64,000 bases of DNA from Bacilli bacterium (lineage in GTDB: Bacteria > Bacillota_I > Bacilli_A > RF39 > UBA660), in contig JBMNEQ010000004.1 in the NCBI GenBank assembly GCA_050948865.1, forward strand, positions 62,477-126,476, read 5' to 3'. The first letter of the stretch is position 1; each line of letters begins with the position of its first letter. The notes beneath the pieces are model-generated. The model was not told where the DNA came from and did not search any database. It saw only the letters and a list, made by a program, of their open reading frames with translations. The position numbers were made by a program, and so were the translations under genes. Below are positions 7,556 to 63,415 of this stretch, one piece after another.

Positions 7556-8584
7556 ATGTCTAAAGAAATAGATTTAAGTCAATATGAAATAAGAACTGAT
7601 ATGGTTTTAGAAGAAATAGAAAGTAAAATACCTAAAAAAGGAATTATTTCTCAAGTTGAAGAAATAAATGATATGAAGATTACTAGAGTAGATGTTTTAA
7701 AAGAGGGAGTTTCTTTAATCAATAAAAAAGAAGGTAAATATATTACTATTGAATTTGAGGATGTTACTGATTCAGAAAATAAAGATGTTTTAAGGAAAGT
7801 ATTTATTAAAGAATTAAAGAAGATGTTAAAATATTTAAAAATTAAAGATAAAGATACTTGTTTAATTATTGGTTTAGGGAATAATAAATCTACTCCTGAT
7901 TCTTTAGGTCCTTTAGTTATAGAACGGTTACTTGTTACTAAACATTTATTTTCTCTTGGAGAAGTGGAAACAGGATATAGAAATGTCAGTGCTTTTTCTC
8001 CTGGAGTTATGGGTCAAACAGGAATTGAAACTAGTGAGATGATTTTAGGTATTATTCAAAAGATAAGGCCAGATTTTTTGATTGTCGTTGATGCTTTAGC
8101 TTCTAATTCCATTTCTAGAATTAATAAAACTATTCAAATGACGGATACAGGAATTCATCCAGGAAGTGGCGTTGGTAATGCTAGAAAAGAAATAAGTTTT
8201 GAAATTTTAAAGATACCGGTTATTGCAATTGGGATACCAACAGTAGTTGATGCTGTTACTATTGTCAGTGATACTATTAATTATATGATGAAAAAGTTTG
8301 CTTATAATAAAGAAAATTTAGATGATCCTTCTAATAAACTAATTCCTTTTTGGAAATTAGATTACTTAAAGAAAGAAAAAGAATTATCTAATCAAGAAAA
8401 AAAGAATTTAATGGGATTGATTGGGACTTTATCAGAAAATGAAATAAAACAATTAGTTTATGAAGTTTTAAATCCGATTGGTTATAATATGATGGTGACA
8501 CCAAAAGAAATAGATTTTTTATTGGAAAAATTAAGTCAAGTTATTGCTTGTGGTTTAAACGAAACATTACATCAAAAAACCTAA
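7556..8584 (+). CDS. gpr: germination protease (spore endopeptidase degrading SASPs)
   Basis: Hallmark motifs EIRTDMVLEE and VVDALAS. Sits in the conserved position next to rpsT and spoIIP. Confidence 0.9.
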   Translation: MSKEIDLSQYEIRTDMVLEEIESKIPKKGIISQVEEINDMKITRVDVLKEGVSLINKKEGKYITIEFEDVTDSENKDVLRKVFIKELKKMLKYLKIKDKDTCLIIGLGNNKSTPDSLGPLVIERLLVTKHLFSLGEVETGYRNVSAFSPGVMGQTGIETSEMILGIIQKIRPDFLIVVDALASNSISRINKTIQMTDTGIHPGSGVGNARKEISFEILKIPVIAIGIPTVVDAVTIVSDTINYMMKKFAYNKENLDDPSNKLIPFWKLDYLKKEKELSNQEKKNLMGLIGTLSENEIKQLVYEVLNPIGYNMMVTPKEIDFLLEKLSQVIACGLNETLHQKT

Positions 8585-8659: not shown

Positions 8660-9670
8660 ATGAAAAAAAGATTTAAAAAGCCAAAAAATTATTTTTCTTT
8701 TAAGAAGATTAAATATGTTTTTTTAATTTTAATAGTTTATTTATCTTATGATTATACTTATTCTTATTTAATTTCTAATAATATAAAAATGACTAATGAA
8801 GCTTTTTTACAATTATTAATAACAGAAGGTAATCATCATGTTTTAACAGGTTATCGTCCCAAAAGTTTAGTAAATGAAATAATATCTAATCTTTATAAAA
8901 TTGATATTAATAAACCAGTTAGTTTATTAGGGATTAATTTATTTGATCAAGATTTATTAGCCCTTAATACTGAAACTCATCATGATGAATATAATCCTTA
9001 TGAACTAGAAAAAGTAACAGAGTATATTAAAGATCCTAATCCAATTAACATTAATAACCCTTTAGTTTATATTTATAATTCTCATCAGTTAGAAAATTAT
9101 CATCCTAAATATTTAGAAATATATAATATTACTCCCAATGTGATGATGGCTTCTTATATGTTAAAAGAAAAGTTAAATAATCTGGGGATTAAAACAATTG
9201 TGGAAGAAGCGAATTTAATTGAATTTATGCGGCTTAATAATTGGAATCATGCTTCATCGTATAAAGCTTCTCGGATCTTTATGTTAGATGCTAAAAATAA
9301 GTATAGTAGTTTAGAATTTTATTTAGATATTCATCGTGATTCGATTAAAAGAAATGCGAGTACAATTTCTATTAATGGAAAATCTTATGCCAAAATATTA
9401 TTATTAATTGGCTTAGAAAATCCTCAATATAAAGAGAATTTAAAGATGGCGGAAGCGATTAATTCTTTATTAAATAAGCATTATCCTGGTTTAAGTAGAG
9501 GAATATTAAAGAAACAAGGAAAAGGTGTTGATGGTATTTATAATCAAGATATTTCTCCTCAAGCTCTTTTAATAGAAATAGGGGGAGTTGATAATAATAT
9601 TGAAGAAGTATTAAATACAGTTGAAGCCTTTTCTTTGGTTTTTTCTAAGTATGTGAATAATTATGATTAA
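8660..9670 (+). CDS. spoIIP: stage II sporulation protein P (cell-wall hydrolase needed for engulfment)
   Basis: N-terminal TM segment, IYNSHQLENY motif (matches the SpoIIP IYHTHxxExY motif) and the conserved gpr-spoIIP linkage. Confidence 0.85.
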   Translation: MKKRFKKPKNYFSFKKIKYVFLILIVYLSYDYTYSYLISNNIKMTNEAFLQLLITEGNHHVLTGYRPKSLVNEIISNLYKIDINKPVSLLGINLFDQDLLALNTETHHDEYNPYELEKVTEYIKDPNPININNPLVYIYNSHQLENYHPKYLEIYNITPNVMMASYMLKEKLNNLGIKTIVEEANLIEFMRLNNWNHASSYKASRIFMLDAKNKYSSLEFYLDIHRDSIKRNASTISINGKSYAKILLLIGLENPQYKENLKMAEAINSLLNKHYPGLSRGILKKQGKGVDGIYNQDISPQALLIEIGGVDNNIEEVLNTVEAFSLVFSKYVNNYD

Positions 9671-10470: not shown

Positions 10471-12267
10471 ATGAAAAGGGAAAATATGCGAAATTTTAGT
10501 ATTATCGCTCATATTGATCATGGGAAAAGTACTTTAGCAGATCGTTTAATTGAATATACTAAAAGTGTTAGTCAAAGAAAAATGAAAAAGCAACTTTTAG
10601 ATTCGATGGATTTAGAACAAGAACGAGGTATTACGATTAAATTAAATGCTGTTCAATTAAAATATAATTTTAATCAAGAAGATTATTATTTTCATTTAAT
10701 AGATACACCAGGTCATGTTGATTTTACTTATGAAGTTTCAAGAAGTTTAGCTGCTTGTGAAGGGGCAATTTTAGTTGTTGATGCTGCTCAAGGAATAGAA
10801 GCTCAAACTTTAGCGAACGTTTATTTAGCTTTAGAAAATAATTTAACTATTATTCCTGTTATTAATAAAATTGATTTACCTAATTCTAATATTGAAAAGG
10901 TGAAAAAGGAATTAAAAGAAACATTTGACTTTCAAGAAGAAGAGATTCTTTTGGTAAGTGCTAAAACAGGATTAGGAATTGAAGATTTAATCAAAAGAAT
11001 TATTGAAATAATACCTGCTCCTCAAGGAAATAAAAATAATCCTTTACAAGCTTTAATTTTTGATAGTATTTTTGATAGTTATCGGGGAGTTATTATTTTA
11101 ATTAGAATTATTAATGGGAAGATTAATCTTGGGGATAAAATTAAATTATTAAATAGTAATGTTATTTATGAAGTAGTAGAACTAGGAATTAATAATCCGA
11201 GTGAAGTAAAAAAAGAAGAGTTAAGGGCTGGAGAAGTAGGTTTTATCTGTGCTAATATCAAGAATATAAATAAAGTTCAAGTGGGAGATACTATTGTTCA
11301 TAGTTATGATTTAAATCCAAAACCTTTACCAGGATATAAACCATTAAATCCAATGGTTTTTTGTGGATTATATCCTGTTGATTCTTCAAAATATGTTTCT
11401 TTAAAAGAAGCTTTAGAAAAATTAAAGTTAAATGATGCTTCATTAGATTTTGAAGCAGAATCATCTAATGCTTTAGGTTTTGGTTTTCGTTGTGGTTTTT
11501 TAGGCTTATTACATATGGAAATTTCTTTAGAAAGAATAGAAAGGGAATTTAATATTGATTTAATCGCTACTTCTCCTAGTGTAATTTATCAAATAAATCT
11601 TACTGATGGCAAGAAAATTAAGATTGATAATCCAACGAAATTACCTCCTCAACAAAAAATAACTTCTATTGAAGAACCATATATTAAAACCACTATTTTA
11701 GTACCAACAGAATATATTGGTCCAATCATGGAATTATGTCAAAGTAAAAGAGGTAGTTTTTTAAAGATGGATTATATTGATAAAACAAGAGTTAAAATTT
11801 ATTATAAAATTCCTTTAGGAGAAATAGTTTATGATTTTTTTGATCGTTTAAAATCATCAACTAAAGGTTATGCTTCTTTTGATTATGAAGTAATTGGTTA
11901 TGATCCTAGTAAATTAGTTAAAATGGATATTTTAATTAATGGAGAAGTTGTTGATGCCTTAAGTATGATTATTCATCAAGATTTTGTTCAATTAAAAGGT
12001 CGTTTAATTGTTGATAATTTAGAAAAATTAATTCCTCGTCAACAATTTGAAGTCCCTATTCAAGCGGTGCTTGGTTCAAAAGTTATTGCAAGAGCAACTA
12101 TTAAAGCGATGAGAAAAAATGTTTTAGCTAAATGTTATGGTGGTGATGTTTCGAGGAAAAGAAAATTATTAGAAAAACAAAAAGAAGGTAAAAAGAAGAT
12201 GAAAATGGTTGGTAAAGTAGAAATTCCTCAAGAAGCCTTTTTATCAGTTTTAAAATTAGATAATTAA
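10471..12267 (+). CDS. lepA: elongation factor 4 (translational GTPase LepA)
   Basis: [20 protein letters not shown]1 motif, DTPGHVDF, and a full EF4 C-terminal domain. Confidence 0.95.
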
Positions 12268-12325: not shown

Positions 12326-12985
12326 ATGAAACAAATTATTCCCTTTAAAAAGGATCTTTTATTTAAAACTAAAGTTAGTGAAATAACTAGTATATCTTTA
12401 GAACATACTTTAAAATTAGAGGAAACAGATTATATTAATGGGGAGTTTATTGTAAGTGGTGATTATAAAATTACTGAGGCTAGTTTAAATTTAGAGAATT
12501 ATTCTTTTAATATTCCTTTTGATATTACTTTAGATACTAAATATAAGTTAGAACAAGCCAAAGTTGATATTCATGATTTTTATTATGAAATTATAAATAA
12601 TGAAGTGCTAAGGGTTAATATTGATGTTCTCATTGAAGGAATAGAACTTTTAAATGATGTGGTTATTAAGGATGAAGAAGTGGAAGTTTTAGAAATAAAT
12701 AAAGAAGATGAAGTAGAAGAAGAACCAGAAAAAGAAGAAGTTAAAGAAGAAAGAACAGAAACTATAATTGAAACAAAAGAAGAAGTTAAATCTTTATTTG
12801 ATTCAATTAATGAATTTGATGAAACCTTTTCGACATATCGTGTTTATATTGTTCGGGAAAATGATTCTTTGGAAACCATTTTAACTAAGTATAATATTTC
12901 TAAAGAAGAATTAAGTCTTTATAATGATTTGGATAATTTAAAATTAGGAGATAAAATTATAATTCCCGCTTTAAAAAATGAATAA
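12326..12985 (+). CDS. SpoVID-like spore coat morphogenetic protein (N-terminal SpoVID-type domain, acidic linker, C-terminal LysM)
   Basis: C-terminal LysM domain (YRVYIVRENDSLETILTKYNISKEELSLYNDL). The N-terminal segment resembles the SpoVID N-domain pattern. Followed by a CotS-family gene, as in the Bacillus spoVID-ysxE operon. Confidence 0.55.
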   Translation: MKQIIPFKKDLLFKTKVSEITSISLEHTLKLEETDYINGEFIVSGDYKITEASLNLENYSFNIPFDITLDTKYKLEQAKVDIHDFYYEIINNEVLRVNIDVLIEGIELLNDVVIKDEEVEVLEINKEDEVEEEPEKEEVKEERTETIIETKEEVKSLFDSINEFDETFSTYRVYIVRENDSLETILTKYNISKEELSLYNDLDNLKLGDKIIIPALKNE

Positions 12986-15946: not shown

Positions 15947-15984
15947 TAAAGACTTTAAGATAATATATATTTTATAAATCGTTG

Positions 15985-16190
15985 ATGAAGGATAGTATTA
16001 AAATGGTTATTTTAAGAGAACTAGTGGTTGGTGAAAACTAGGAATAATGTTTTAAGAATCAACTTCGGAGTGAAACGAGGAATTAAGTATTCGTTTTCGG
16101 TTTAACCGTTATTTAAAAAAAGAGATTAGAGTGTAATTAGGATGGCACCACGGCATTTCGTTCCTAGGGAAGAGAAATGTCTTTTTTTAT
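15985..16190 (+). promoter_or_regulatory. T-box riboswitch leader controlling serS
   Basis: AGAGA box, F-box CCGTTA (16106-16111), T-box AATTAGGATGGCACCACGG (16134-16152), and a terminator hairpin plus T-run (16153-16190) competing with the antiterminator. Confidence 0.75.
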
Positions 16191-16205: not shown

Positions 16206-17471
16206 ATGTTAGATATTAAAAGAATTGTGGAGAACAAAGAAGAAGTAAGAAAAGCTTTATTAAAAAGGGGGTTAGAAGTAGATTTTGATCTTTTAATTAA
16301 TTTATATAATGATCGACGTCAAATATTAGTCGAAGTAGAAGAATTAAAAAGTATTAAAAATAAATTAACCAAAGAAGTGGGAATTTTAAAAAGAAAGAAA
16401 GAATCAGCTGATCATTTAATTAAAGAAATGACTAATAATAATGAAAAGATTGATGATTTGGAAAAGAAACAAAAGGATCTAGCAATAAAGATCAATGATT
16501 TTTTAATTGAACTTCCTAATACTCCTGATGATGATGTAGTTAGTGGGGGAAAAGAATTTAACGAAGTCATAAGAACTTATAAAGAAAAACCAGAGTTTAC
16601 TTTTGAGTCTAAGGATCATGTCACTTTAATTAATCAATTGGGTTTAGTTGATTTTGAAAGAGGAACAAAATTAGGAGGCTTTGGTTATTGGATTTATAAA
16701 GGAATAGGGGCTAGATTAGAATGGGCTTTAATAAATTATTTTATTGATTTTCATTTAAAAAATGGTTATGAGTTTTTACTTCCTCCTCATATTTTAAATG
16801 AAGAATGTGGATATACTGCAGGTCAATTTCCTAAATTTAAAGATGATGTTTTTAAAGTTCTAGATGGGGGATTTTTATTACCAACCGCTGAAACAGCAAT
16901 AATTAATTATCATCGAGATGAAATATTAAATATTAATGATTTACCTAAAAAATACTTTTCTTATACTCCTTGTTATCGTAAAGAAGCGGGAAGTCATCGG
17001 GCTGAAGAAAGAGGAACTGTAAGAGGGCATCAATTTAATAAAGTGGAAATGTTTGTTTATACAACTAAAGAAGATTCAGAGAAAATGTTAGAAGAATTAG
17101 TACTAAATGCTGAAAAATTAGTCCAAGGGTTAAATTTACATTATCAAGTTAGTAAATTAGCAGCTGAAGATGTCAGTGCGGGAATGGCTAAAACTTATGA
17201 TGTAGAAATATGGATTCCTAGTATGAAAGAATATAAAGAGGTGTCTAGTGTTTCTAATGCTCGTGATTATCAAACAAGAAGGGGAATGATTAGATATAAG
17301 ACTAAAGAGGGAAAAATTGAATATGCTCACGCTTTAAATGGTTCAGGTTTAGCGACATCACGTTTATTACCAGCTTTAATAGAACAAAATCAAAATGAAG
17401 ATGGAAGTATAACTATTCCTGAAGTTTTAAGACCATATTTAGGAGGAATAAGTAAAATAACGGTTAGTTAA
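16206..17471 (+). CDS. serS: seryl-tRNA synthetase
   Basis: N-terminal coiled-coil arm and class II aaRS motifs (FRKEAGSHRAEERGTVRGHQF...), preceded by a T-box leader. Confidence 0.95.
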   Translation: MLDIKRIVENKEEVRKALLKRGLEVDFDLLINLYNDRRQILVEVEELKSIKNKLTKEVGILKRKKESADHLIKEMTNNNEKIDDLEKKQKDLAIKINDFLIELPNTPDDDVVSGGKEFNEVIRTYKEKPEFTFESKDHVTLINQLGLVDFERGTKLGGFGYWIYKGIGARLEWALINYFIDFHLKNGYEFLLPPHILNEECGYTAGQFPKFKDDVFKVLDGGFLLPTAETAIINYHRDEILNINDLPKKYFSYTPCYRKEAGSHRAEERGTVRGHQFNKVEMFVYTTKEDSEKMLEELVLNAEKLVQGLNLHYQVSKLAAEDVSAGMAKTYDVEIWIPSMKEYKEVSSVSNARDYQTRRGMIRYKTKEGKIEYAHALNGSGLATSRLLPALIEQNQNEDGSITIPEVLRPYLGGISKITVS

Positions 17472-17960: not shown

Positions 17961-18017
17961 TAGATCTTATGTTAAAATAAAATTTCTAGTAATTATTAAT
18001 TGAAAGGAGAAATCATT

Positions 18018-18242
18018 TTGTCAAAAAAGATTGAAGTAAATGACTTAGTAACAAGAAATTCTTATAATAATGATGTTATTTTTAAGGTAGTTGAGATTGA
18101 AGAAGATAATGCTACTCTTAAAGGGGTAATTGTTCGTTTATTAGCGGATAGCCCCCTTAGTGATTTAAAAAGTTATGAAAAAGATGATATTCAAAAGCAA
18201 TTAACTGATACTTTAAATAAAGTGAAAGTAAAAAGAAAATAA
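18018..18242 (+). CDS. small hypothetical protein (74 aa)
   Basis: AAAGGAG RBS 7 nt upstream of TTG 18018. Strong hairpin terminator immediately after the stop (18246-18280). Confidence 0.4.
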   Translation: MSKKIEVNDLVTRNSYNNDVIFKVVEIEEDNATLKGVIVRLLADSPLSDLKSYEKDDIQKQLTDTLNKVKVKRK

Positions 18243-18245
18243 TAA

Positions 18246-18280
18246 TTAACACTCTAGATTGGAGTGTTAATTTTTATTTT
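18246..18280 (+). terminator. rho-independent terminator
   Basis: AACACTC-loop-GAGTGTT stem followed by a T-rich tract. Confidence 0.65.
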
Positions 18281-18389
18281 AGGATATTTTGTCAAGGATT
18301 GTCAAATTTTAACAAAGTATTTATTTTTATTTAGTTAATCTTTTTATTCTAATTTTTATTATGTTATTATTATTTAAGGAGGAAAAAAG

Positions 18390-19661
18390 ATGAAAAAACT
18401 AAAAGTTTTATTAGTTGTTATTTGTTTATTATTATTTAGTGGTTGTGATTTAAAATTAGAAAATAAAAAGCCTAAGAAATTAAAACCAGAGATGAATGTT
18501 TTATCCTCAGATTTAGGTTATTTATCAGATCTAAAGATAATTAAGAAATTTAATTCAGAAGGTGCCATAAGTTTAAATAATTTTGCTTTTAATTTATATG
18601 ATCAATTATTTCAAAAGGATAAAAATGTGTTTATATCCCCTGTAAGTGTTTATTTAGCTTTAAGTATGACTTATAATGGAGCAGCTGAAAAGACTGCTTT
18701 AGAAATGGGAAATGTTTTAGAAACAGGTAATTTAAGTTTAGAAGAATTTAATGAATTAAATCGTGATTTACAATTTTTAATTTTAGGGTATAAAAATAGT
18801 AAAATTGAACTTGCTAATTCTATTTGGATAAGAGATTCTTATCAAGAAGCAGTTAAAGAAGATTTTTTAAAGCGAAATAAAATGTATTATGGAGCGATGG
18901 TTTCTAGTTTAGATTTTAATAATCAAAGAGCAGTAGAAACAATTAATAACTGGGTTAAAAAGAATACCAATAATCGAATTAAAGAAGCAATTACTGGAGA
19001 AATAGATCCTTTAACAGAAATGTTTTTAATTAATACTATTTATTTTAAGTCTGATTGGTTAAATTTATTTAAAAAAGGAAATACTAGTAAGAAAGATTTT
19101 AATACTCCTCATGGTTTAAAAAAGGTTCAAATGATGTCTAAGAATGATAAAATTGGATATGTCGAAAATGATCAATTAAAAGCAGTTTTGCTTCCTTATA
19201 AAGATCAAAAAACATCAATGTTTATTATTTTACCGGAAAACAAATTAGAAGATTTATTATTAGATTCTAATATAATTAGTGATTTAATTAAAGAAATGAA
19301 AGATAATCAAGTGGAAGTTGATTTAAGTATGCCCCGAATGAAAATAGACTATGAAATTTCATTAAAAGAATCTTTAATGAAGATGGGAATGATTGAAGCT
19401 TGGAGTAGTCAAGCAGATTTTTCTAAAATGTCTTCTCTAGCCTTAGAAAAAGGATTACATATAGATGATATAGAACATAAAACATTTCTTGAGGTAAATG
19501 AAAAAGGGACAGAAGCAGCGGGAATGACTAGTGTTCTAATGGAAGATACAGCTTTTATGGACAAAAGTTATAAAATGTATATCGATCGTCCTTTTGTTTT
19601 AGGAATAATTGATCATGAAAGCGAAGTAGTTTTATTTTTAGGTAATATTGTTGATCCTTAA
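18390..19661 (+). CDS. serpin (serine protease inhibitor) lipoprotein
   Basis: Lipobox LLFSGC. Serpin hinge/reactive-centre loop NEKGTEAAGMTSVLME and C-terminal signature YIDRPFVLGI...LFLGNIVDP. Confidence 0.85.
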   Translation: MKKLKVLLVVICLLLFSGCDLKLENKKPKKLKPEMNVLSSDLGYLSDLKIIKKFNSEGAISLNNFAFNLYDQLFQKDKNVFISPVSVYLALSMTYNGAAEKTALEMGNVLETGNLSLEEFNELNRDLQFLILGYKNSKIELANSIWIRDSYQEAVKEDFLKRNKMYYGAMVSSLDFNNQRAVETINNWVKKNTNNRIKEAITGEIDPLTEMFLINTIYFKSDWLNLFKKGNTSKKDFNTPHGLKKVQMMSKNDKIGYVENDQLKAVLLPYKDQKTSMFIILPENKLEDLLLDSNIISDLIKEMKDNQVEVDLSMPRMKIDYEISLKESLMKMGMIEAWSSQADFSKMSSLALEKGLHIDDIEHKTFLEVNEKGTEAAGMTSVLMEDTAFMDKSYKMYIDRPFVLGIIDHESEVVLFLGNIVDP

Positions 19662-29752: not shown

Positions 29753-30869
29753 ATTGTTTTTGAAACAATCTTTTTTTTCTAAAAATTCCAAGCATGATTA
29801 AAAGAGTAATTATTAATAAAGGGGCTGAGATTAGATAATGGAATTTCTTTTGCATAAAATCTAAAGCAAAAATAGCCCGTCCTTTGAAAATAAAGTAAGA
29901 AATTAATAAGCCTAAAATACAAATAAGACTAATATTAAGTTTAAGAGACTTTTCTTTTTTTAATTTAAATAAACTTTTACTATATTCACTTATAAAATAT
30001 AAGGTTAAAGTAGCTAAAATAAAGAAATTAAAATACCAGTGAATATTTAAAAAGTTTTCTAAACCGGTAATAAAATCTCCAATAACTATTTTTCTTTGAA
30101 TGTAAGCCTCAGGATAGCGGTATAATTGGGCTAAACTAATGGTTAAAACGGTAGTAATCATAAAGTAAACTATAGAAAGAAGGATGAGGGAAGCTAAAAA
30201 GCCAATAATTAAATATTTTTTATAATGAGTATTGTCTTTGATTTTATTTTTAGGAATCATTGTTAAAGTTATTAAAGGGGGATAAGCATAACATAATAAG
30301 ATTAAACTTTGAGAAATAACAGCTAGAGGACCATTTTTACAAATGGGAAAGATCTTTTCAGTATCAACCCAAGGATATAAAGAAAAGACAACGATGATAA
30401 TTAAAAGGATTCCTCCATAAAAAAGGATTTCTCCTACCCGACTAATGATAGTTAAACCTTTTGATACAGCATAATAAAAGATAATAGTAGATAAACCTGC
30501 TAAAAATAAATAAGGAGTTTCTCCTGCATATAAAAAGATGGTTGTATAAGCACCACTCCAAATAATTATTCCAAATAAAACTAACATGCCCATTATTAAA
30601 AGGAAATTGATAATGTTGCCAAAAGTATTACCAAAGATGATTTTATTTTTTTCTAAAATATTTTTATTTGGTTCAAATTCCATAATATAAATTATGATAA
30701 TTAAGGGAATAAAAGCAATAACAAGGGAAAATAAAGGTATTAGCCAAGAATCTTCATCAGCTTGATTAATTATAATAGATGTTCCAAAACCAGGGAAAAG
30801 AGCACTACCAAGAAAAAAACTTAAAATCCCTAGTTGAAAAGAAGTGATAGTTCCTTTATTTTTTAGCAT
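29730..30869 (-). CDS. spore germination protein, GerAB/GerKB permease family
   Basis: N-terminus with ITSFQLGILSFFLGSALF and about 10 TM helices, typical of the B subunit of germinant receptors. Confidence 0.8.
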   Translation of the reverse strand: MLKNKGTITSFQLGILSFFLGSALFPGFGTSIIINQADEDSWLIPLFSLVIAFIPLIIIIYIMEFEPNKNILEKNKIIFGNTFGNIINFLLIMGMLVLFGIIIWSGAYTTIFLYAGETPYLFLAGLSTIIFYYAVSKGLTIISRVGEILFYGGILLIIIVVFSLYPWVDTEKIFPICKNGPLAVISQSLILLCYAYPPLITLTMIPKNKIKDNTHYKKYLIIGFLASLILLSIVYFMITTVLTISLAQLYRYPEAYIQRKIVIGDFITGLENFLNIHWYFNFFILATLTLYFISEYSKSLFKLKKEKSLKLNISLICILGLLISYFIFKGRAIFALDFMQKKFHYLISAPLLIITLLIMLGIFRKKRLFQKQSKLLKQQ

Positions 30870-32076
30870 TTTTCATCCTCCTTTTAGATGAATCTAAGAA
30901 AGCTTGCACATCTTTAAGTTTAGTTTTGATTTTAATATCATATTTGGTGGTAGGATAAATATTGTCCCAATCATCTTTTAATTTTTTCCATTCTTGATGA
31001 TGATATCGATAAAGATGTTCTCCTACTCCAATAACATCACTTTTAAACTCCTTTTGAGTAGCTTTAATAGTTTTATTAATAATCCTTTTTAATTCCTTGT
31101 CAGCCATTTTTTCTATTTTTTTTAAATTCTTAGTCTTTTTTAAATCATAAGAGCAGTTAATTTCATTTAGGGATCCTTCTATTTCCACATTAAAAGAAGC
31201 ATGAGGAATTCCTTTTTTAATGTCGACCTTTCTATTAAATTTTAATTTATCAACCGAAATACTAGCATAATTTTTCTTTTTATCACAAGGAAAAGAAAGA
31301 GTAAATTTTTTAATTCTTTGTCTTAATATTTGATAACCAAGACTTTCTTTTTCTTTAAAAAAACCAACTAATTTATCATCTTTAAAAACAGCATTGCCAA
31401 TTATCTTTATTTTTGTTTGTGGTTCAGCTGTTTTTACATTTTTAGCTGTTTCTCCCTTTTTTGGTTTACCAACGATTTTGATGGCATTAAAACTAGTATT
31501 TCTTCCTTCTTGAAGAATACAATCAACAACTTTGTCAAAAGTAGAAACGCTAGAAGCACTACCACTTAAATAAGAAATATGTTTTAAACTTGTCACCAAA
31601 TCTTTAGCTGGATAATCTTCTAAAGCAGAAGTTATTTTTAAAGCTTCATTAGCAGTTGATCCTTTAACAATAATTAAAGGAAATATTTTTCTTGCTCTTT
31701 TTTCTCTAAGGAAAAAGTCTAAAACATCATAAAGACCATTTTTAGCAGTTTGTTCTCCAATTAAAACAACTTCTAGATGCCCTAAATAAGGTTCTTTAGG
31801 GATTGTTAAAACAACTTTATTAATTGCTTCTAGAATAGTTTTTCCTTTGGCATCATAGGTAGCAAAAGGAAGTTTAGCTTCTGCTCCTCCTGCACTTCCT
31901 TCACTTTCAGGGCGGGTAATATTTAATATTTGTAAGGTTATTAGATATGTTTTAGATTTATTATCATAATCAACTCCAATTCCACTAATTAAATTAAAAT
32001 CATCTAATTCTTTATATTCCCAACATCCTGATAAAGTTATAATTATTAAAAATAAAATTATTATTTTTATTTTCAT
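30856..32076 (-). CDS. spore germination protein, GerAC family lipoprotein
   Basis: Lipobox LSGCW, and the C subunit sits between the A and B genes. Confidence 0.8.
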   Translation of the reverse strand: MKIKIIILFLIIITLSGCWEYKELDDFNLISGIGVDYDNKSKTYLITLQILNITRPESEGSAGGAEAKLPFATYDAKGKTILEAINKVVLTIPKEPYLGHLEVVLIGEQTAKNGLYDVLDFFLREKRARKIFPLIIVKGSTANEALKITSALEDYPAKDLVTSLKHISYLSGSASSVSTFDKVVDCILQEGRNTSFNAIKIVGKPKKGETAKNVKTAEPQTKIKIIGNAVFKDDKLVGFFKEKESLGYQILRQRIKKFTLSFPCDKKKNYASISVDKLKFNRKVDIKKGIPHASFNVEIEGSLNEINCSYDLKKTKNLKKIEKMADKELKRIINKTIKATQKEFKSDVIGVGEHLYRYHHQEWKKLKDDWDNIYPTTKYDIKIKTKLKDVQAFLDSSKRRMKNAKK

Positions 32077-33539
32077 TTTTTCTGATCCTTTCCTCGAAGG
32101 GGATTCTTTTTGGCTGTTAGGACATTTCTTTCTTGAAATTTAGCTACATTGGTTAAAAGAAAAGCATCGTGTTGATTTTTTAAATTAATAGGAGTATAAG
32201 GGGATAAATAAGAGATACCAAAAGATTCAATACTAGCTAAATAAGTTAAGAATAAGAATGTTCCCGCGAGTAGTCCTGTTATTCCAATAAAAGAAACTAA
32301 AAAGATAAATAATAATCGCCACCATCTAAGACCATTAACCAATTCCATGTTTGAAACTATTAAACCACTAATAGCAGTAATAGCTATTACAATAATCATA
32401 ATCGGGGAGACTAAACCAGCTGTAACAGCAGCTTCTCCTAAAACTAAAGCACCAACGATACTTAAAGCACTACCTAAATTTTTGGGTATTCTTAAATCTG
32501 TTTCTTTTAGTATTTCAAAGATGATTAACATTATTAAAGCTTCTACAACAGTTGGAAAGGGAACTCCTTGCCTTTGAGTAGCAAAACTAATATATAATTG
32601 TTGAGGGATGGCTTCTTGATTATGAGTAGTAATAGCAATATAAAGAGCAGGAGTAAATAAAGTTAAAAAAAGAGCGATTAATCTTATGATTCTAGTATAA
32701 TTAACATTAATTGCTTTTTGATAATAATCATCAGGTGAACGAAAGAAATCAACAAAGATAGCTGGAATAAGAACTACAGAAGGAGTATTATCTAAGACAA
32801 TAGCAATTTTACCTTCTAATAAACTAGAACAAACCCGATCTGGTCTTTCTGTTGGTAAATAATTAGCAAAAGTTTTATATTTATTATCAGAAATTAATTC
32901 AATAATATAATTAGCGTCTAATATGGCATCAATATTAATACTTTCTATTTTATTTATTACATTTTGAACCATATTTAAATCGACAATATCCTTAATATAC
33001 ATAATTCCTATTTTAGTTTGACTGCGAACTCCAACAATTAATTCTTTTAATTTTAAATTAGAATCTTTTATTCTTGATCTAATTAAACCAAGATTAGTTT
33101 GATAATTTTCTACAAAAGAATCTTGAGGACCTTTAATAGTGCTTTCTAATTGAGCTTCTGAGATCGGACTATTTAATCCAGCTTTTGTTTCTAAGATTAA
33201 AACTTCATCAAAACCATCAATAATAAGGATTGTTAAACCACTAGTAAGAAAAGTAGTCAATTCTTGATAAGATTTAGTTTTTTTAATATTATTAATAGGT
33301 ATTTTAGTTTTCAAATATTTTAAAAGATCTTCTTCTTCTATTTTCTCTTCTGGTTCTCTTTCTAAAAAACTTAAAATAAACTTATTGATAGTTGTTCTTT
33401 CACTAATGGTTTCATTAAATACAAGATGAAGATAAGTGTTAGAATAAGTTAAAGTTTTAATAATTAAATCAGGGAAATCTTGAAAATCATTTTTAATTTT
33501 ATTAATTATTTCTTTACTATTTTTGACTAGTTTCTCCAT
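32073..33539 (-). CDS. spore germination protein, GerAA family
   Basis: GerA-family A subunit with soluble N-domain and C-terminal TM bundle. It heads the A-C-B operon. Confidence 0.85.
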   Translation of the reverse strand: MEKLVKNSKEIINKIKNDFQDFPDLIIKTLTYSNTYLHLVFNETISERTTINKFILSFLEREPEEKIEEEDLLKYLKTKIPINNIKKTKSYQELTTFLTSGLTILIIDGFDEVLILETKAGLNSPISEAQLESTIKGPQDSFVENYQTNLGLIRSRIKDSNLKLKELIVGVRSQTKIGIMYIKDIVDLNMVQNVINKIESINIDAILDANYIIELISDNKYKTFANYLPTERPDRVCSSLLEGKIAIVLDNTPSVVLIPAIFVDFFRSPDDYYQKAINVNYTRIIRLIALFLTLFTPALYIAITTHNQEAIPQQLYISFATQRQGVPFPTVVEALIMLIIFEILKETDLRIPKNLGSALSIVGALVLGEAAVTAGLVSPIMIIVIAITAISGLIVSNMELVNGLRWWRLLFIFLVSFIGITGLLAGTFLFLTYLASIESFGISYLSPYTPINLKNQHDAFLLTNVAKFQERNVLTAKKNPLRGKDQKK

Positions 33540-58512: not shown

Positions 58513-59034
58513 ATGATTGATTTTATAGAATTTTTAAAAGATATATTTGGTTATGCTATTATAATTGCTTTAATTATTTTAATTAGAATATTTGTTTTAG
58601 TTCCTATTGAGGTAGTAGGAACTTCTATGGAACCAAATTTAAAAAATGGGGATATAATATTAATGGATAAAGTAGCATATAATTATTTTAAATTAAAACG
58701 TTTTGATGTTATAGTATCTGAATATGATAGCCCTAAACATATAGTTAAAAGAATAATAGGTTTACCAGGAGATAAAATTAGATATATAGATAATAAATTA
58801 TATATTAATGAAAAAGAAGTAGAAGAAAAATTTAATAAATATGGAGTAATAGAAGATTATTCTTTAAAAGAATTAGATTATGAAAAAATACCAGAAGATA
58901 TGTATTTTGTAATAGGGGATAATAGAGAAGATTCTGTTGATAGTCGTAGTTTTGGTTTAATCCATAAAGAAGAAATAGAAGGAAAACCTTTTCTTGTTAT
59001 ATGGCCCTTAAATCATTTTAAGTTAGTAAAATAA
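58513..59034 (+). CDS. signal peptidase I, second copy
   Basis: GTSMEPNL, KRIIGLPGD and GDNREDSVDSR boxes. 173 aa. Confidence 0.85.
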   Translation: MIDFIEFLKDIFGYAIIIALIILIRIFVLVPIEVVGTSMEPNLKNGDIILMDKVAYNYFKLKRFDVIVSEYDSPKHIVKRIIGLPGDKIRYIDNKLYINEKEVEEKFNKYGVIEDYSLKELDYEKIPEDMYFVIGDNREDSVDSRSFGLIHKEEIEGKPFLVIWPLNHFKLVK

Positions 59035-59284
59035 TAAAAGACTTTTATTGTTTCCCAACAATTGCCAAAAAATAATTTTTGTGCTATTATATTTTTAAGT
59101 TTAGACATTTATTATTTAATTTGGCAAACTTTTTGAAAGAAAAGGACGCAAAGTTGGGAATCTAAGGTATTAGTGATGGTAATTGAATACTATGATCGTC
59201 CAACTGCAACTAGCGAATATTGCAGTTTTTTGTTTGAATAATAAGTGTTGAACGGGCTAAATATATTAATGGGAGGAAATATTT

Positions 59285-62200
59285 ATGCTAAACAGAAAAT
59301 TTATTGTAGCTTTTGCAGTTACAGTACTCGTTTTCTTGGGAATCTATACGTTTGCGTTAAACCCGCCAGCAGATGAACCTAAGGACGATGAAACAGGTGT
59401 TAAGGAGGAGCAAAAGACACCGAAAGAAGAGAATATAGAAGGGGAAAATATAGAGGAAGGGGAAGAGGCTGAAGAAGAATTTGAAGAAGGAACAGGAAGT
59501 GGTTTACAATTTACTCCTGGAAGAATTATACCTACTACAAGTTCTGTAACTAATTTACCAGAAAAGGTAGAGGAAGATACTGAAGAACCAGTGGTAGAGG
59601 AAGAAGTTATTCCATTATCAATTTCAGGAGTAGAAGAAGGGGCATATTATAATGATGAGCAACAGTTAGAAATAAAAGGAACAAACATAATTAGTGTTAA
59701 ACGTAATGGGGAATCAGTTGGATTTACAGGTGGTAATTATTCTTTTAGTGAAGAAGCTGAATATGAAATAGTTGTTACTGATAATGATAATAATACTATT
59801 TCAGTGAATTTTGTGATTGATACTACTGTTCCAAGTATAAGTGGAATTGAAGAAAATACACATACGAATAATGAAGTAGAAATAACAATTGAGGATAAAA
59901 ATTTAGAATCAGTTTTAGTTAACGATGAAATAATTGAATTAGATGAAAATAATAAATTTGTTCTTAGTGAAGAAAATGAATATGTTGTTATCGTTACTGA
60001 TAAAGCGAATAATCAAACTAAAGTTGAATTCGTTATTGATAAAACAGCTCCTGAGGTAAAACTTAATGGAGATAAAAAAATATATTTAGAATTCAATCAA
60101 GATTATTATGATGATAAAGGTGCTACTGCAACAGATACTTTTACTGCAACAGAAGAATTAATATTTAGAAATTTAATTGAATATGTTGAAGTAATAGATG
60201 GTAATAAAAACTTCGTTAAAGTTTCAGAAATTGATAATACAAAAATTGGAAGATATAAAGTTTGGTATTATTTTAAAGATAAAGCTGGTAATGAAGGTAA
60301 TGCCATAAGAAATGTTTATGTAGAAGATACTACTTCACCTATTATTGAATTAATAGGGGATTCAGAAATAATTATGAATCCATCAATTTTCTATTTTGAT
60401 CAAGGAGCCACAGCTACTGATAATTATGATGGAGATTTAACAAAGAAAATTAAAAAAACAGGTTTTGTTAATCCATTAATTCCAGGAAAATATACGATTA
60501 CTTATAATGTTACTGATAGTAATGGAAATGAAGCTGAACCTGTATCAAGAACCGTGATTGTTAAAGATACAATTAAACCAACAGTATTATTATTACCATA
60601 TGGTAATAATAAAGCAGCTAAAACTCATAGTACTTGGGTAATTGTTTTAGATAATCACCGTGTTGATAATGATAGTTTAAAATATATATGGACTGATTCA
60701 ACAGAAGCGCCAACTAAAGAAGAATTTAGTAATGAATTTAGAAATTTTAATGTAATTAAAAGTCCATCTGATTTAAATGGAACCTATTATTTATGGATTT
60801 ATGCTAAAGATGTTAGTGGCAATGAAACAATAGTTAGTAGTAAAGCTTTTAATTTTGATAATGAAGGCCCAAGTGTAGAGGTAAATTATAGTATTACTGA
60901 AGAAACTAATGAAAATGTAGTAGTAACTATTAGTGCAAATGAAAAGATGCAAAAAGTAGATGGTTGGACATTATCAAATGATAAAAAAGAATTAAAGAAA
61001 GATTATAAAACAAATGTTTCTAATGAACGTGTTGTCTTAAAAGATTTGTTAGGAAATAGTACAGAAGTTTTTATAAGTATAACTAATATAGATAAAGGAA
61101 AACCTGATTTTAAAATTTCAAGGAATATTCCTTTTGATCAACCAACTAATCAAGATGTTACTCTAACTTTTGCTATTGCTTATGATAATTCTGGCGGTTT
61201 TGGTCTTCATGATGAACCTTATTCATTTGATGGGGGAAAGACATGGACTAATGACTCTTCTAAAACCTTTTCAAAAAACCAAAGTGTTAATGTAATGTTA
61301 AGAGATAAAGTTGGTAATACCTGTTCAGGAAGTATTAAAATTACCAATATTGATAAGGAAACTCCTGTTGTAACTTATAATGATAAAGAACAAAGAACAG
61401 TCAAAGAAACAATTACAATAAACCCAGATGGGGAATATGATGTGGAAGGAAACAATCCTTTTCTAGTAACAGATAATAGTCAAGAAGGTTATTTAGAACC
61501 TTATGAAATAAAAATTAGATATGCTCCAGAATGGGATGGGCAAAATGGAACATATAATGGTAAAAAAGTAGATAAAGTTGATTTGGGATTACTAGGAGTA
61601 TATAGAATTGATTATAAATATAAAGATGAAGCAGGTAATAAAACTTATGGTGCTGTTTGGATTTATGTAGTTGTTGGTGAAAAACAAGTTTATAATGAAA
61701 CAAAACAAATTCTTTATGATGTTATACAAGAAGCAATAAATGAAGCAGATGAAGGAAATACGATTTTAGTAGGACCTGGAGAATATGATGTAGCATATAT
61801 TAAAGAATCTAAAAAACATTATTTATTGATTGAAAAACCAATAATTATTAAAGCTGCTGAAATGGATAATAAACCTATTTTAGTTGGAGATTATAATCAA
61901 ATTCAAGCTCAAGGAAGCCATCAACAGGCAACCATAGAAATTTATAATACTGATAATGTTACTTTAGATGGTTTAGTTATACATAGTATAGAAAACTATC
62001 CTTCGACCTTTACTAAAGCATTAGAAATAACAAATTCAAATAATACTCTTATAAATAATTGTACTATTTACGATGAAGGTAGGACCGCTATTTATATTGC
62101 TGGAAATGAAGTAGGAAAATATACAATTTCAAATAATAACCTTGATGGTTCTATTGTTGTAGCTAATGGTGCTGGTGATGGAGAAGGGGCTAATGAAGCC

Positions 62201-63415
62201 ATTATTAAAAATAATGTTATAAATGGAAGTATTTCTTTTACAGGAAAAACCAATTCAGGTTGGGATCCTTTATCTATTAACGAATATCCAAATATAAAAA
62301 ATAATGTTATTAATGGAACAAATGAAGGAATGTTATTGAATAGTCGTGATAGTGATGAAGGTAATTTAATTAGTAATGATCTTTTAAATATGATTATCGA
62401 AAATAATGAGTTCCCTAGTGGAGAAATAGGTATAATGAAGGATAGTTATGAATGTTATGATGCAGAATTACATAGAAAAAGACTTATTTTAAATCCTTTG
62501 ATTATTAATACTACAACTAGTTTTTCTTATTTAACTCTTCAAAATGCAATTAATGATGCTAACGAAGGAGATACTATTAAATTATTTGATCATCTTCAAC
62601 TTAGTTCGACAATAAATATTTCTAATCTTAATTTTACACTAGATTTGAATGGTCATAGTTTGACAACTCCAGATGCTGAGGGTTCGGCTGCCCAAACGGT
62701 GTTTAAAATTGTTGGGGAGTCTAATGTTACGATACAAGGTAAAGGTTTGATTCAATCAGGGACCACTACTAGTTATGAAGGGTTTGTTAATATGACTCCA
62801 ACAATCCATATAAATGATGCAAATTCTAGTCTTACAATAGATAATGCAACTATTAAAGGTGGAGATTCCATTAATTCACGAGATACAGCACCGGCCCTTT
62901 GGGGTCAAAACTTTAAGGAAATTAACATTATTGATGCAACTATACTCGGGGGAGACCACATTAAGAAAAAAGATGTAGGTATTGGATATAACAATTATGC
63001 TACTGCAGGTTATGCGATTGATTTAAATGTAGCAAGTGGCAAAACTGTAAATATCATTAGAAGTACCATTAGTGGTGGTAATGGAATAAACGGTGGATAT
63101 AATACTTTTGAACAAGGTGAAGGATATAAGCAAGCTTCTGGTGGGCAAGCATTTTCTATGAATCAAACAAACGAAATAAATATTACAAATTCCACTATTA
63201 GGGGCGGTCACAGTGATTTACATCATGGAGGTCATGCTATTGTACGAGGCGTGGGGAAATTTGATATAAAAGCCTCTAGTTTAGTTGGTGGAAATGGTAA
63301 TAAAGAAAATGGATATTCGGCAGGAAAAGGAGTATCTGGCTATGATTCTGGAAGTGGTAGTTACACTATTGATGAAAACTCTACTATAACTGATGGAGGT
63401 TCAAGTAATTCATAA
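59285..63415 (+). CDS. large exported surface protein: N-terminal signal-anchor, acidic linker, about 6 DUF5011/Ig-like repeats, parallel beta-helix (pectate-lyase-like) repeats, Gly-rich C-terminus
   Basis: N-terminal hydrophobic segment. Repeated ...DQGATATDNYDGDLT...TYNVTDSNGNEAEP..RTVIVKDTIKP modules (DUF5011-like). NNCTIYD.../ISNNNLDGS PbH1-type repeats. No LPXTG or SLH motif seen. Confidence 0.8.
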   Translation: MLNRKFIVAFAVTVLVFLGIYTFALNPPADEPKDDETGVKEEQKTPKEENIEGENIEEGEEAEEEFEEGTGSGLQFTPGRIIPTTSSVTNLPEKVEEDTEEPVVEEEVIPLSISGVEEGAYYNDEQQLEIKGTNIISVKRNGESVGFTGGNYSFSEEAEYEIVVTDNDNNTISVNFVIDTTVPSISGIEENTHTNNEVEITIEDKNLESVLVNDEIIELDENNKFVLSEENEYVVIVTDKANNQTKVEFVIDKTAPEVKLNGDKKIYLEFNQDYYDDKGATATDTFTATEELIFRNLIEYVEVIDGNKNFVKVSEIDNTKIGRYKVWYYFKDKAGNEGNAIRNVYVEDTTSPIIELIGDSEIIMNPSIFYFDQGATATDNYDGDLTKKIKKTGFVNPLIPGKYTITYNVTDSNGNEAEPVSRTVIVKDTIKPTVLLLPYGNNKAAKTHSTWVIVLDNHRVDNDSLKYIWTDSTEAPTKEEFSNEFRNFNVIKSPSDLNGTYYLWIYAKDVSGNETIVSSKAFNFDNEGPSVEVNYSITEETNENVVVTISANEKMQKVDGWTLSNDKKELKKDYKTNVSNERVVLKDLLGNSTEVFISITNIDKGKPDFKISRNIPFDQPTNQDVTLTFAIAYDNSGGFGLHDEPYSFDGGKTWTNDSSKTFSKNQSVNVMLRDKVGNTCSGSIKITNIDKETPVVTYNDKEQRTVKETITINPDGEYDVEGNNPFLVTDNSQEGYLEPYEIKIRYAPEWDGQNGTYNGKKVDKVDLGLLGVYRIDYKYKDEAGNKTYGAVWIYVVVGEKQVYNETKQILYDVIQEAINEADEGNTILVGPGEYDVAYIKESKKHYLLIEKPIIIKAAEMDNKPILVGDYNQIQAQGSHQQATIEIYNTDNVTLDGLVIHSIENYPSTFTKALEITNSNNTLINNCTIYDEGRTAIYIAGNEVGKYTISNNNLDGSIVVANGAGDGEGANEAIIKNNVINGSISFTGKTNSGWDPLSINEYPNIKNNVINGTNEGMLLNSRDSDEGNLISNDLLNMIIENNEFPSGEIGIMKDSYECYDAELHRKRLILNPLIINTTTSFSYLTLQNAINDANEGDTIKLFDHLQLSSTINISNLNFTLDLNGHSLTTPDAEGSAAQTVFKIVGESNVTIQGKGLIQSGTTTSYEGFVNMTPTIHINDANSSLTIDNATIKGGDSINSRDTAPALWGQNFKEINIIDATILGGDHIKKKDVGIGYNNYATAGYAIDLNVASGKTVNIIRSTISGGNGINGGYNTFEQGEGYKQASGGQAFSMNQTNEINITNSTIRGGHSDLHHGGHAIVRGVGKFDIKASSLVGGNGNKENGYSAGKGVSGYDSGSGSYTIDENSTITDGGSSNS

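Follow-up and report, generated by a model that had tools for sequence, protein, structure and literature searches.

A predicted lipoprotein serpin, probably of the miropin-like Group T, in an uncultured spore-forming Bacilli lineage

Where does a spore-forming bacterium hold a serpin, and what is the inhibitor likely to do there? This question is raised by a gene at 18390..19661 (+ strand) of a 64,000-nucleotide stretch of DNA, hereafter the window. The gene encodes 423 amino acids followed by a stop codon, in the open reading frame that a preliminary description had delimited and called a full-length serpin. In a Pfam scan, PF00079 (Serpin) covered residues 62 to 423, corresponding to profile positions 3 to 370 of 370, with an E value of 5.3e-97 and a score of 325.8 bits (the gathering cutoff is 27 bits). 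An E value this low excludes a chance match. The near-complete profile match upholds the full-length reading, for which a serpin profile search had been proposed. The strings quoted in the preliminary description were all located, LLFSGC at residues 14 to 19, GTEAAGMT at 373 to 380, and SVLMEDTAFM at 381 to 390.

The serpin domain spans residues 62 to 423 (18573..19658, + strand) according to the PF00079 match, an AlphaFold model, and Foldseek. The best sequence matches among solved structures were miropin (5ncs, E=9.5e-55), chloropin (8gxv, E=3.2e-51), and tengpin (E=1e-45); conserpin was also listed, and each of the best solved relatives is a bacterial or an inhibitory serpin. The AlphaFold2 model, built on 55 relatives, has a pLDDT of 89.9 and a pTM of 0.87. 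Its sole disordered part is residues 378 to 391, between strands s5A (362 to 369) and s1C (393 to 397), which is where the reactive-centre loop is expected. In the Foldseek search, native miropin (5ncs) ranked first, and the best 50 of the 415 PDB matches at E<=1e-3 were all serpins. The C-terminal signature was read directly from the sequence as claimed. It runs from Met396 to Ile406 (MYIDRPFVLGI; 19575..19607, + strand) and presumably fits PROSITE PS00284. Within the 20 closest relatives, P401 of this signature is invariant and F402 is kept as Phe or Tyr. The query is identical to human alpha-1-antitrypsin at 44 of the 52 positions that we take to be classically conserved in serpins (after Irving et al. 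2000). The retained set includes the shutter residues S53, S56, N186, and H334, the breach residue W194, and E342 and G344. Human alpha-1-antitrypsin, in a sequence checked for length (394 aa) and residues 194, 342, and 358 only, is 30% identical to the query over 349 aligned residues.

The gene is single-copy within the window and native in composition, with a GC3 of 0.144 against 0.10 to 0.17 in the neighbouring genes. The identical 423-aa protein is present on 9 contigs from several independent samples. Therefore, the frameshift that had been named as a possible flaw is not there. The window itself has a GC content of about 25%. The LepA encoded there matches, at 100% identity, a protein on a 788-kb JGI contig of a "Bacilli bacterium" metagenome-assembled genome (MAG), the next match is 94% identical, and all later ones are at 75% or less. 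The host is a deep-branching, uncultured, low-GC Bacilli lineage. Horizontal transfer of the serpin was considered and rejected, because the composition is native and the nearest serpins, like the nearest LepA, come from "Bacilli bacterium" MAGs. The window also encodes Gpr (7556-8584), SpoIIP (8660-9670), a SpoVID-N/LysM protein (12326-12985), and the germination receptor proteins GerAB, GerAC, and GerAA (29730-33539, - strand). These genes justify the earlier designation of the host as a spore-former.

The first 19 residues form a predicted lipoprotein signal peptide (18390..18446, + strand), delimited by pattern tests and by the conservation of Cys19. The signal, MKKLKVLLVVICLLLFSG followed by C19, has the n-region MKKLK, the h-region VLLVVICLLL, and the lipobox L-F-S-G-C. 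It passes a PROSITE PS51257-like rule and G+LPP v2. However, it fails the older and stricter G+LPP v1, because lipobox position -3 is Phe. Among 55 aligned relatives, at least 90% retain Cys19 and 44 match a lipobox pattern. Comparable lipoboxes occur in GerAC (TLSGC), ApbE (FIGC), and three other proteins (e.g., FTGC) of the same window, which indicates that this type of signal suits the organism. Known lipoproteins occur in both the GerAC and the ApbE family. Neither lgt nor lspA was found within the 64-kb window. With two of three patterns passed and Cys19 so widely conserved, the lipoprotein claim stands as a prediction, and Cys19 of the serpin would be the lipidated residue.

Between Cys19 and the serpin domain lies a Lys-rich tether, or N-terminal extension (residues 20 to 61, 18447..18572, + strand), that is modelled with low to moderate confidence. 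Its one predicted element is a short strand at residues 36 to 39, ahead of helix A. The preliminary description had called the protein surface-tethered. The tethering holds as a predicted lipid anchor, but "surface" is imprecise, since single-membrane Bacilli carry their lipoproteins on the outer side of the cytoplasmic membrane, under the wall or inside it.

Is the trap of this serpin intact? The hinge, E371-K-G-T-E-A-A-G-M379 (19500..19526, + strand), was placed by numbering and alignment. It comprises P17 E371, P16 K372, P15 G373, P14 T374, P13 E375, and A-A-G-M at P12 to P9. This stretch is nearly invariant among the 20 closest relatives, with G373 and T374 in all 20 and E371 in 19. The residues at P12 to P10 (A-A-G) are small, and neither charge nor proline occurs between P12 and P9. 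The published inhibitory motif is ExGTEAAAA (PMC8233489). Met at P9 is uncharged but not small, in contrast to the textbook rule of Ala, Gly, or Ser; it is the norm of the clade, being found in 15 of the 20 relatives. The claim of an inhibitory-type hinge is thus supported by a canonical, clade-invariant P17 to P10, with the caveat of Met at P9, a position at which miropin has Val.

The reactive-centre loop from P15 to P5' comprises residues 373 to 392 (19506..19565, + strand). Counting from the hinge places the predicted scissile bond P1-P1' at Thr387-Ala388 (19548..19553, + strand), within the P4-P1' sequence Met384-Glu-Asp-Thr387/Ala388. In alignments, the P1 Arg of chloropin and Thr369 of miropin both lie opposite Thr387. 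The query loop is three residues longer than that of alpha-1-antitrypsin, with an offset from the hinge Gly to the Pro of 28 versus 25. Anchoring this longer loop from s1C is what places Met390 opposite M358. The miropin loop is longer still (29), and yet it uses the hinge-count register, which makes Thr387 the better call for the query P1. Thus, from the earlier suggestion of Thr or Met at P1, Thr is retained on the hinge count and on both alignments, and Met, as Met390, arises only from the s1C anchoring. Asp386 and Glu385 are possible alternative P1 residues.

The 20 closest relatives show which parts of the loop are free to change. P4 Met, P1 Thr or Glu, and P1' Ser or Ala are semi-conserved. 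The positions P3, P2, and P2' to P5' are hypervariable, with entropies of 2.2 to 3.3 bits versus a mean of 1.39 bits for the body of the protein. The Glu-Asp of the query at P3-P2 is unusual in this clade, in which P3 is usually Arg or Lys and P2 is usually Leu or Val. Thr at P1 together with acidic P3-P2 residues points to no obvious common protease. We interpret a hypervariable loop on an invariant hinge as a fixed trap whose specificity may be diversifying.

The sequence upstream of the gene suggests how it is expressed. A hairpin resembling an intrinsic terminator (18244..18272, + strand), with a 13-bp stem and a T-run, ends an upstream mini-ORF. Its position just upstream indicates that the serpin is a separate transcription unit. 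A candidate control region at 18289..18327 (+ strand) contains a direct repeat, TTGTCAA-GGA-TTGTCAA (18289-18305), that overlaps a weak sigma-70-like site, TTGTCA-17-TATTTT (18299-18327). A role of the repeat and the sigma-70-like site in control is putative, and promoter-like sites upstream of the serpin are no commoner than in shuffled sequence. A strong Shine-Dalgarno sequence, AAGGAGG (18376..18382, + strand), lies 7 nt before the ATG. A CAT-containing -10 element is typical of sporulation sigma factors. On direct reading, the 117 bp upstream of the serpin are free of the CAT triplet, so that no sporulation-type promoter is evident there, although this is a weak negative. The mini-ORF is YabG-like, and we considered whether it could be the remnant of a yabG gene split by insertion of the serpin. 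This was rejected because no YabG-like sequence was found further downstream, the mini-ORF has its own Shine-Dalgarno sequence and terminator, and most of its homologues are stand-alone proteins of 50 to 120 aa.

We looked for a partner protease in the neighbourhood of the gene. Pfam scans of about 45 ORFs detected no candidate target and no exported serine protease within the 64-kb window. Gpr, a signal peptidase S26, and a YgjP-like metallopeptidase, which are housekeeping or sporulation enzymes, were set aside as partners, since they show neither linkage to the serpin nor a fitting specificity. A conserved operon was likewise rejected, because the three closest relatives examined (61%, 52%, and 51% identity) lie in wholly different housekeeping contexts. 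Around 83 related loci, the 150 immediate neighbours included 12 serpins (tandem copies), 7 ECF sigma factors, 3 S8 subtilases, and 3 MA-clan peptidases, and no protease was recurrent or dominant among them. The absence of a linked protease and the unrelated contexts indicate that the serpin is a stand-alone gene.

How unusual is such a protein? NCBI already lists the identical 423-aa protein under MGI6330077.1, "MAG: serpin family protein [Bacilli bacterium]", and its IMG name is "serine protease inhibitor". At E<=1e-10, a protein search yielded 970 relatives, of which the closest is 61% identical, followed by one at 56% and then by lower values; several of the closest come from Bacilli MAGs. 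A lipobox and a GTEAAA hinge occur together in most of the best 120 of the 970. Among GTDB species representatives, an alignment-based scan confirmed at least 591 serpin loci in many phyla. A single-protein query of these representatives found no relative, and the best among the matches listed for an alignment query was 50% identical; the species of the window is evidently absent from them. Serpins with lipoboxes are also encoded in the genomes of cultured Brevibacillus reuszeri, a Paenibacillus sp., Ureibacillus manganicus, and Natronincola peptidivorans. Membrane-anchored prokaryotic serpins are already recognised in the literature (PMC8233489). Given the abundant relatives, these cultured examples, and the prior literature, a lipoprotein serpin in a spore-former is not a novel combination. 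The rarity implied by the words "patchily distributed" was therefore overstated, since members of the family abound in metagenomes and other spore-formers, and this very protein had already been annotated as a serpin.

We suggest that the protein is probably an inhibitory serpin that is tethered to the cytoplasmic membrane and acts as a suicide substrate to shield envelope proteins. The inhibitory mechanism is the one expected of a member of the serpin family. The precursor would be exported via the Sec pathway, diacylglycerol would be added at Cys19, and removal of the signal peptide would leave a mature protein of 405 residues (about 46.5 kDa). The mature serpin would face outwards from the cytoplasmic membrane on its tether of about 40 residues and act in the zone between membrane and wall. 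The attacking enzyme would be a serine protease or, possibly, a cysteine protease of the papain type. It would attack the exposed loop at the Thr387-Ala388 bond or immediately upstream of it, whereupon the hinge from P15 to P9 would insert into beta-sheet A and the protease would be trapped as a covalent complex. Such trapping may guard envelope proteins against extracellular proteases made by other organisms or by the cell itself. Envelope protection is the likely role if miropin and the Clostridium thermocellum serpins are taken as models, and the example of miropin also makes a defence against the proteases of a host or competitor plausible.

The same molecule and mechanism could instead serve in regulation rather than in defence against foreign proteases. 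The regulated enzyme would be an extracytoplasmic protease of the cell itself, such as a secreted subtilase or one that acts at the membrane in sporulation or germination. We regard this regulatory role as unlikely, although several observations speak for it. A full set of sporulation and germination genes surrounds the locus, and a tether beneath the wall should limit the access of large foreign proteases. PinA of C. thermocellum inhibits subtilisin-like proteases that are also present in the organism's own genomes (PMC8201313), and an S8 subtilase adjoins a few of the related loci (3 of the 150 neighbours). However, no protease gene is linked to the serpin in the window, the genomic context is wholly different in the closest relatives, and the upstream stretch has no CAT triplet. 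In addition, the hypervariable P3, P2, and P2' to P5' are more in keeping with a defence that diversifies than with one constant housekeeping target. Regulation of this kind, by a membrane-tethered serpin acting on an envelope, sporulation, or germination protease of its own endospore-forming cell, is also one of two forms that an undescribed role could take. The other is a trap for Glu/Asp-specific glutamyl endopeptidases of the V8 type at Glu385 or Asp386, which is conceivable from Met-Glu-Asp-Thr/Ala at P4-P1' combined with a flexible register like that of miropin. We give an undescribed role of either form only a slim chance.

Two further explanations deny the protein a working trap or a working export signal. 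Met at P9 departs from the small-residue rule, and for common proteases the combination of Thr at P1 and Glu-Asp at P3-P2 is not typical, as might be seen if the protein served the envelope in binding or as a kind of chaperone, with its fold preserved and its trap lost. We consider such a non-inhibitory serpin very improbable, because the hinge is canonical and clade-invariant from P17 to P10 and the shutter and breach residues are kept. Miropin, with Val at P9 and Thr as its canonical P1, is a proven inhibitor (bioRxiv 10.1101/2025.09.05.674453), and Group T prokaryotic serpins are judged to be mostly inhibitory (PMC8233489). The last explanation is that this lineage is losing the gene or can do without it and that the serpin is not functionally exported. 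It draws on one independent assembly (L087), in which the Shine-Dalgarno sequence, the start codon, and the larger part of the signal peptide are lost through a 62-bp deletion between 13-nt direct repeats. If the contig is genuine, export is not kept in every population. However, in L087 the body of the serpin has 100% identity and no stops, the window and 8 other contigs are intact at 423 aa, and the clade keeps both lipobox and hinge, so we consider decay or dispensability barely credible. The tethered, envelope-shielding inhibitor is the explanation that we retain.

The significance of the protein is modest. It adds one more probable miropin-like Group T member, from an uncultured low-GC spore-forming Bacilli lineage. 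Taken alone, the locus raises no new question, and its product is already correctly annotated in public databases. The clade of lipoproteins to which it belongs could be of wider use. With its fixed hinge and its variable P3, P2, and primed side, it could serve as a panel for the diversification of serpin specificity. The physiological role of prokaryotic serpins has been described as enigmatic (PMC8233489), and if the serpin did regulate a protease of its own cell, a bacterial serpin would gain a defined physiological role.

Human alpha-1-antitrypsin has an identical hinge from P17 to P10 (EKGTEAAG). However, it is a secreted glycoprotein with Met at P1, whereas the query is a predicted bacterial lipoprotein with Thr as its predicted P1. 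The siropins of Eubacterium siraeum and PinA/PinB of C. thermocellum, likened to the query here by description, are inhibitory serpins of anaerobic Firmicutes. The siropins inhibit human neutrophil elastase and proteinase 3. C. thermocellum forms spores, and its PinA is attached via a dockerin module. PinA is attached through the cellulosome, in contrast to the predicted lipid anchor of the query. It is cited as a "modular cellulosomal serpin" in a review (PMC8201313), and the siropins and PinA/PinB are thought to shield the cell or cellulosome from extracellular proteases (PMC5127057; PMC8201313).

Tengpin of Thermoanaerobacter tengcongensis (2pee), a Group T serpin from a Firmicute, carries an N-terminal extension before its serpin domain, as does the query with its roughly 40 residues. 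The 56-aa extension of tengpin stabilises the native state (PMC1905895). However, the two extensions have no detectable sequence similarity, and the alignment begins at helix A. Chloropin of Chlorobium limicola (8gxv) is the second-best solved relative (E=3e-51) and has the same hinge register. By hinge count its P1 is Arg, in contrast to Thr387 of the query. The crystallised chain of chloropin lacks an N-terminal lipoprotein signal, and the comparison covers that chain only. Inhibition by chloropin is reported to be accelerated by DNA (PMC10090351).

Miropin of Tannerella forsythia is the top match by both sequence and structure and the nearest characterised protein, although it is only about 31% identical to the query. 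It is a lipoprotein serpin, as is predicted for the query, with the hinge GTEAAA and a hydrophobic P9 (Val, where the query has Met). The two share a long loop (Gly-to-Pro offset of 29 versus 28), Met at P4, and Thr as the canonical P1. The loop consensus of the query clade, TKVEM-x-x-[T/E]-S-x-P, closely resembles TAVEMVKTSSP of miropin. Miropin has been described as a surface lipoprotein inhibitor with three adjacent reactive bonds, P3-P2, P2-P1, and P1-P1' (bioRxiv 10.1101/2025.09.05.674453). These are Val367-Lys368, Lys368-Thr369, and Thr369-Ser370, and Lys368-Thr369 is labelled P2-P1 (bioRxiv 10.1101/2025.09.05.674453). At P3-P2, miropin has Val-Lys and the query has Glu-Asp. Since the query lacks this Val-Lys, trypsin, plasmin, and Kgp, which miropin targets via Lys368, are unlikely targets. 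The anchors also differ. T. forsythia is an oral pathogen of the Bacteroidota with two membranes, and miropin is anchored in the outer one and exposed at the surface, whereas the query is predicted to lie on the cytoplasmic membrane of a single-membrane spore-former. Group T consists of miropin, the siropins, tengpin, and the Bifidobacterium serpin (PMC8233489, Spence et al. 2021). The nearest characterised relatives of the query, by sequence and structure matches, are members of this group, with miropin first and tengpin among the best.

The locus L087, a serpin region on an independent metagenome contig (ENA ERZ27247346), is 99.8 to 100% identical to the window outside a single deletion. It lacks 62 bp, in the region of L087 positions 1370 to 1400, and the window counterpart lies within 18364 to 18438. 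There, two 13-nt direct repeats, TTATTATTATTTA, flank the missing segment (18364 to 18376 and 18426 to 18438). Through this deletion, L087 has lost the Shine-Dalgarno (SD) sequence and ATG of the serpin, together with the greater part of its signal peptide. In the gene call, the L087 serpin starts at an upstream ATG, giving a 412-aa product with the N terminus MLLLFSGC. The loss may reflect either a variant that arose by deletion between the repeats or an artefact of assembly. Upstream of the serpin, a direct repeat with a 10-bp period, TTGTCAA-GGA-TTGTCAA (18289 to 18305, + strand), overlaps the only plausible -35 element of the gene. This repeat may serve as an operator or as the site of a regulator.

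A 74-aa YabG-like ORF (18018 to 18242, +) begins with TTG behind an AAAGGAG SD; the ORF listing puts its start at 18000 instead. Of the sporulation peptidase YabG (PF05582, E = 1e-14), it matches only the N-terminal ~65 residues. We rejected an origin from a broken yabG, because the ORF has its own terminator and many relatives of 50 to 120 aa. A HMMER scan found 415 relatives among the representatives; of the 150 listed, most have that length. Therefore, judged by sequence, the product looks like a recurrent stand-alone mini-protein.

Several other features lie on the same strand. The products of 20940 to 22109 and 22240 to 23322 are paralogues in which a type IV pilin N-terminal methylation motif is fused to a Fibrobacter succinogenes major domain (FISUMP). 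The first of these genes has a GC content of 0.35, above that of its surroundings. Downstream of the pair is a Tad-like pilus cluster encoding a TadE-like protein, a ParA/CpaE-like ATPase, a T2SSE ATPase and two T2SSF proteins (20940 to 28038 with the pair). A c-di-GMP-I riboswitch (67 bits) sits immediately 5' of a gene whose 1376-aa product contains a bacterial surface Ig-like domain (together 59113 to 63415); the product is probably an adhesin under c-di-GMP control. A signal peptidase I gene (58513 to 59034) lies just ahead. The T-box leader (15973 to 16168, 117 bits) upstream of serS (16206 to 17471) is ordinary tRNA-dependent regulation.

Among 5.8 billion proteins searched, LepA (10471 to 12267, +) had an identical MAG protein and one 94% match; all others were at most 75% identical. 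The host therefore seems to belong to a Bacilli lineage that branches deeply, is poorly sampled, has ~25% GC and retains endospore genes.

Elsewhere, further serpins (Pfam) made up 12 of the 150 immediate neighbours of related serpin loci, followed by ECF sigma factor genes (7 of 150). The loci listed for tandem serpins or neighbour genes are L015, L020, L026, L034, L053, L055, L062, L064, L072, L080 and L083. Tandem serpin duplicates are thus fairly common beside related serpins in other phyla, with cases including Ureibacillus manganicus and an uncultured Tannerella MAG.
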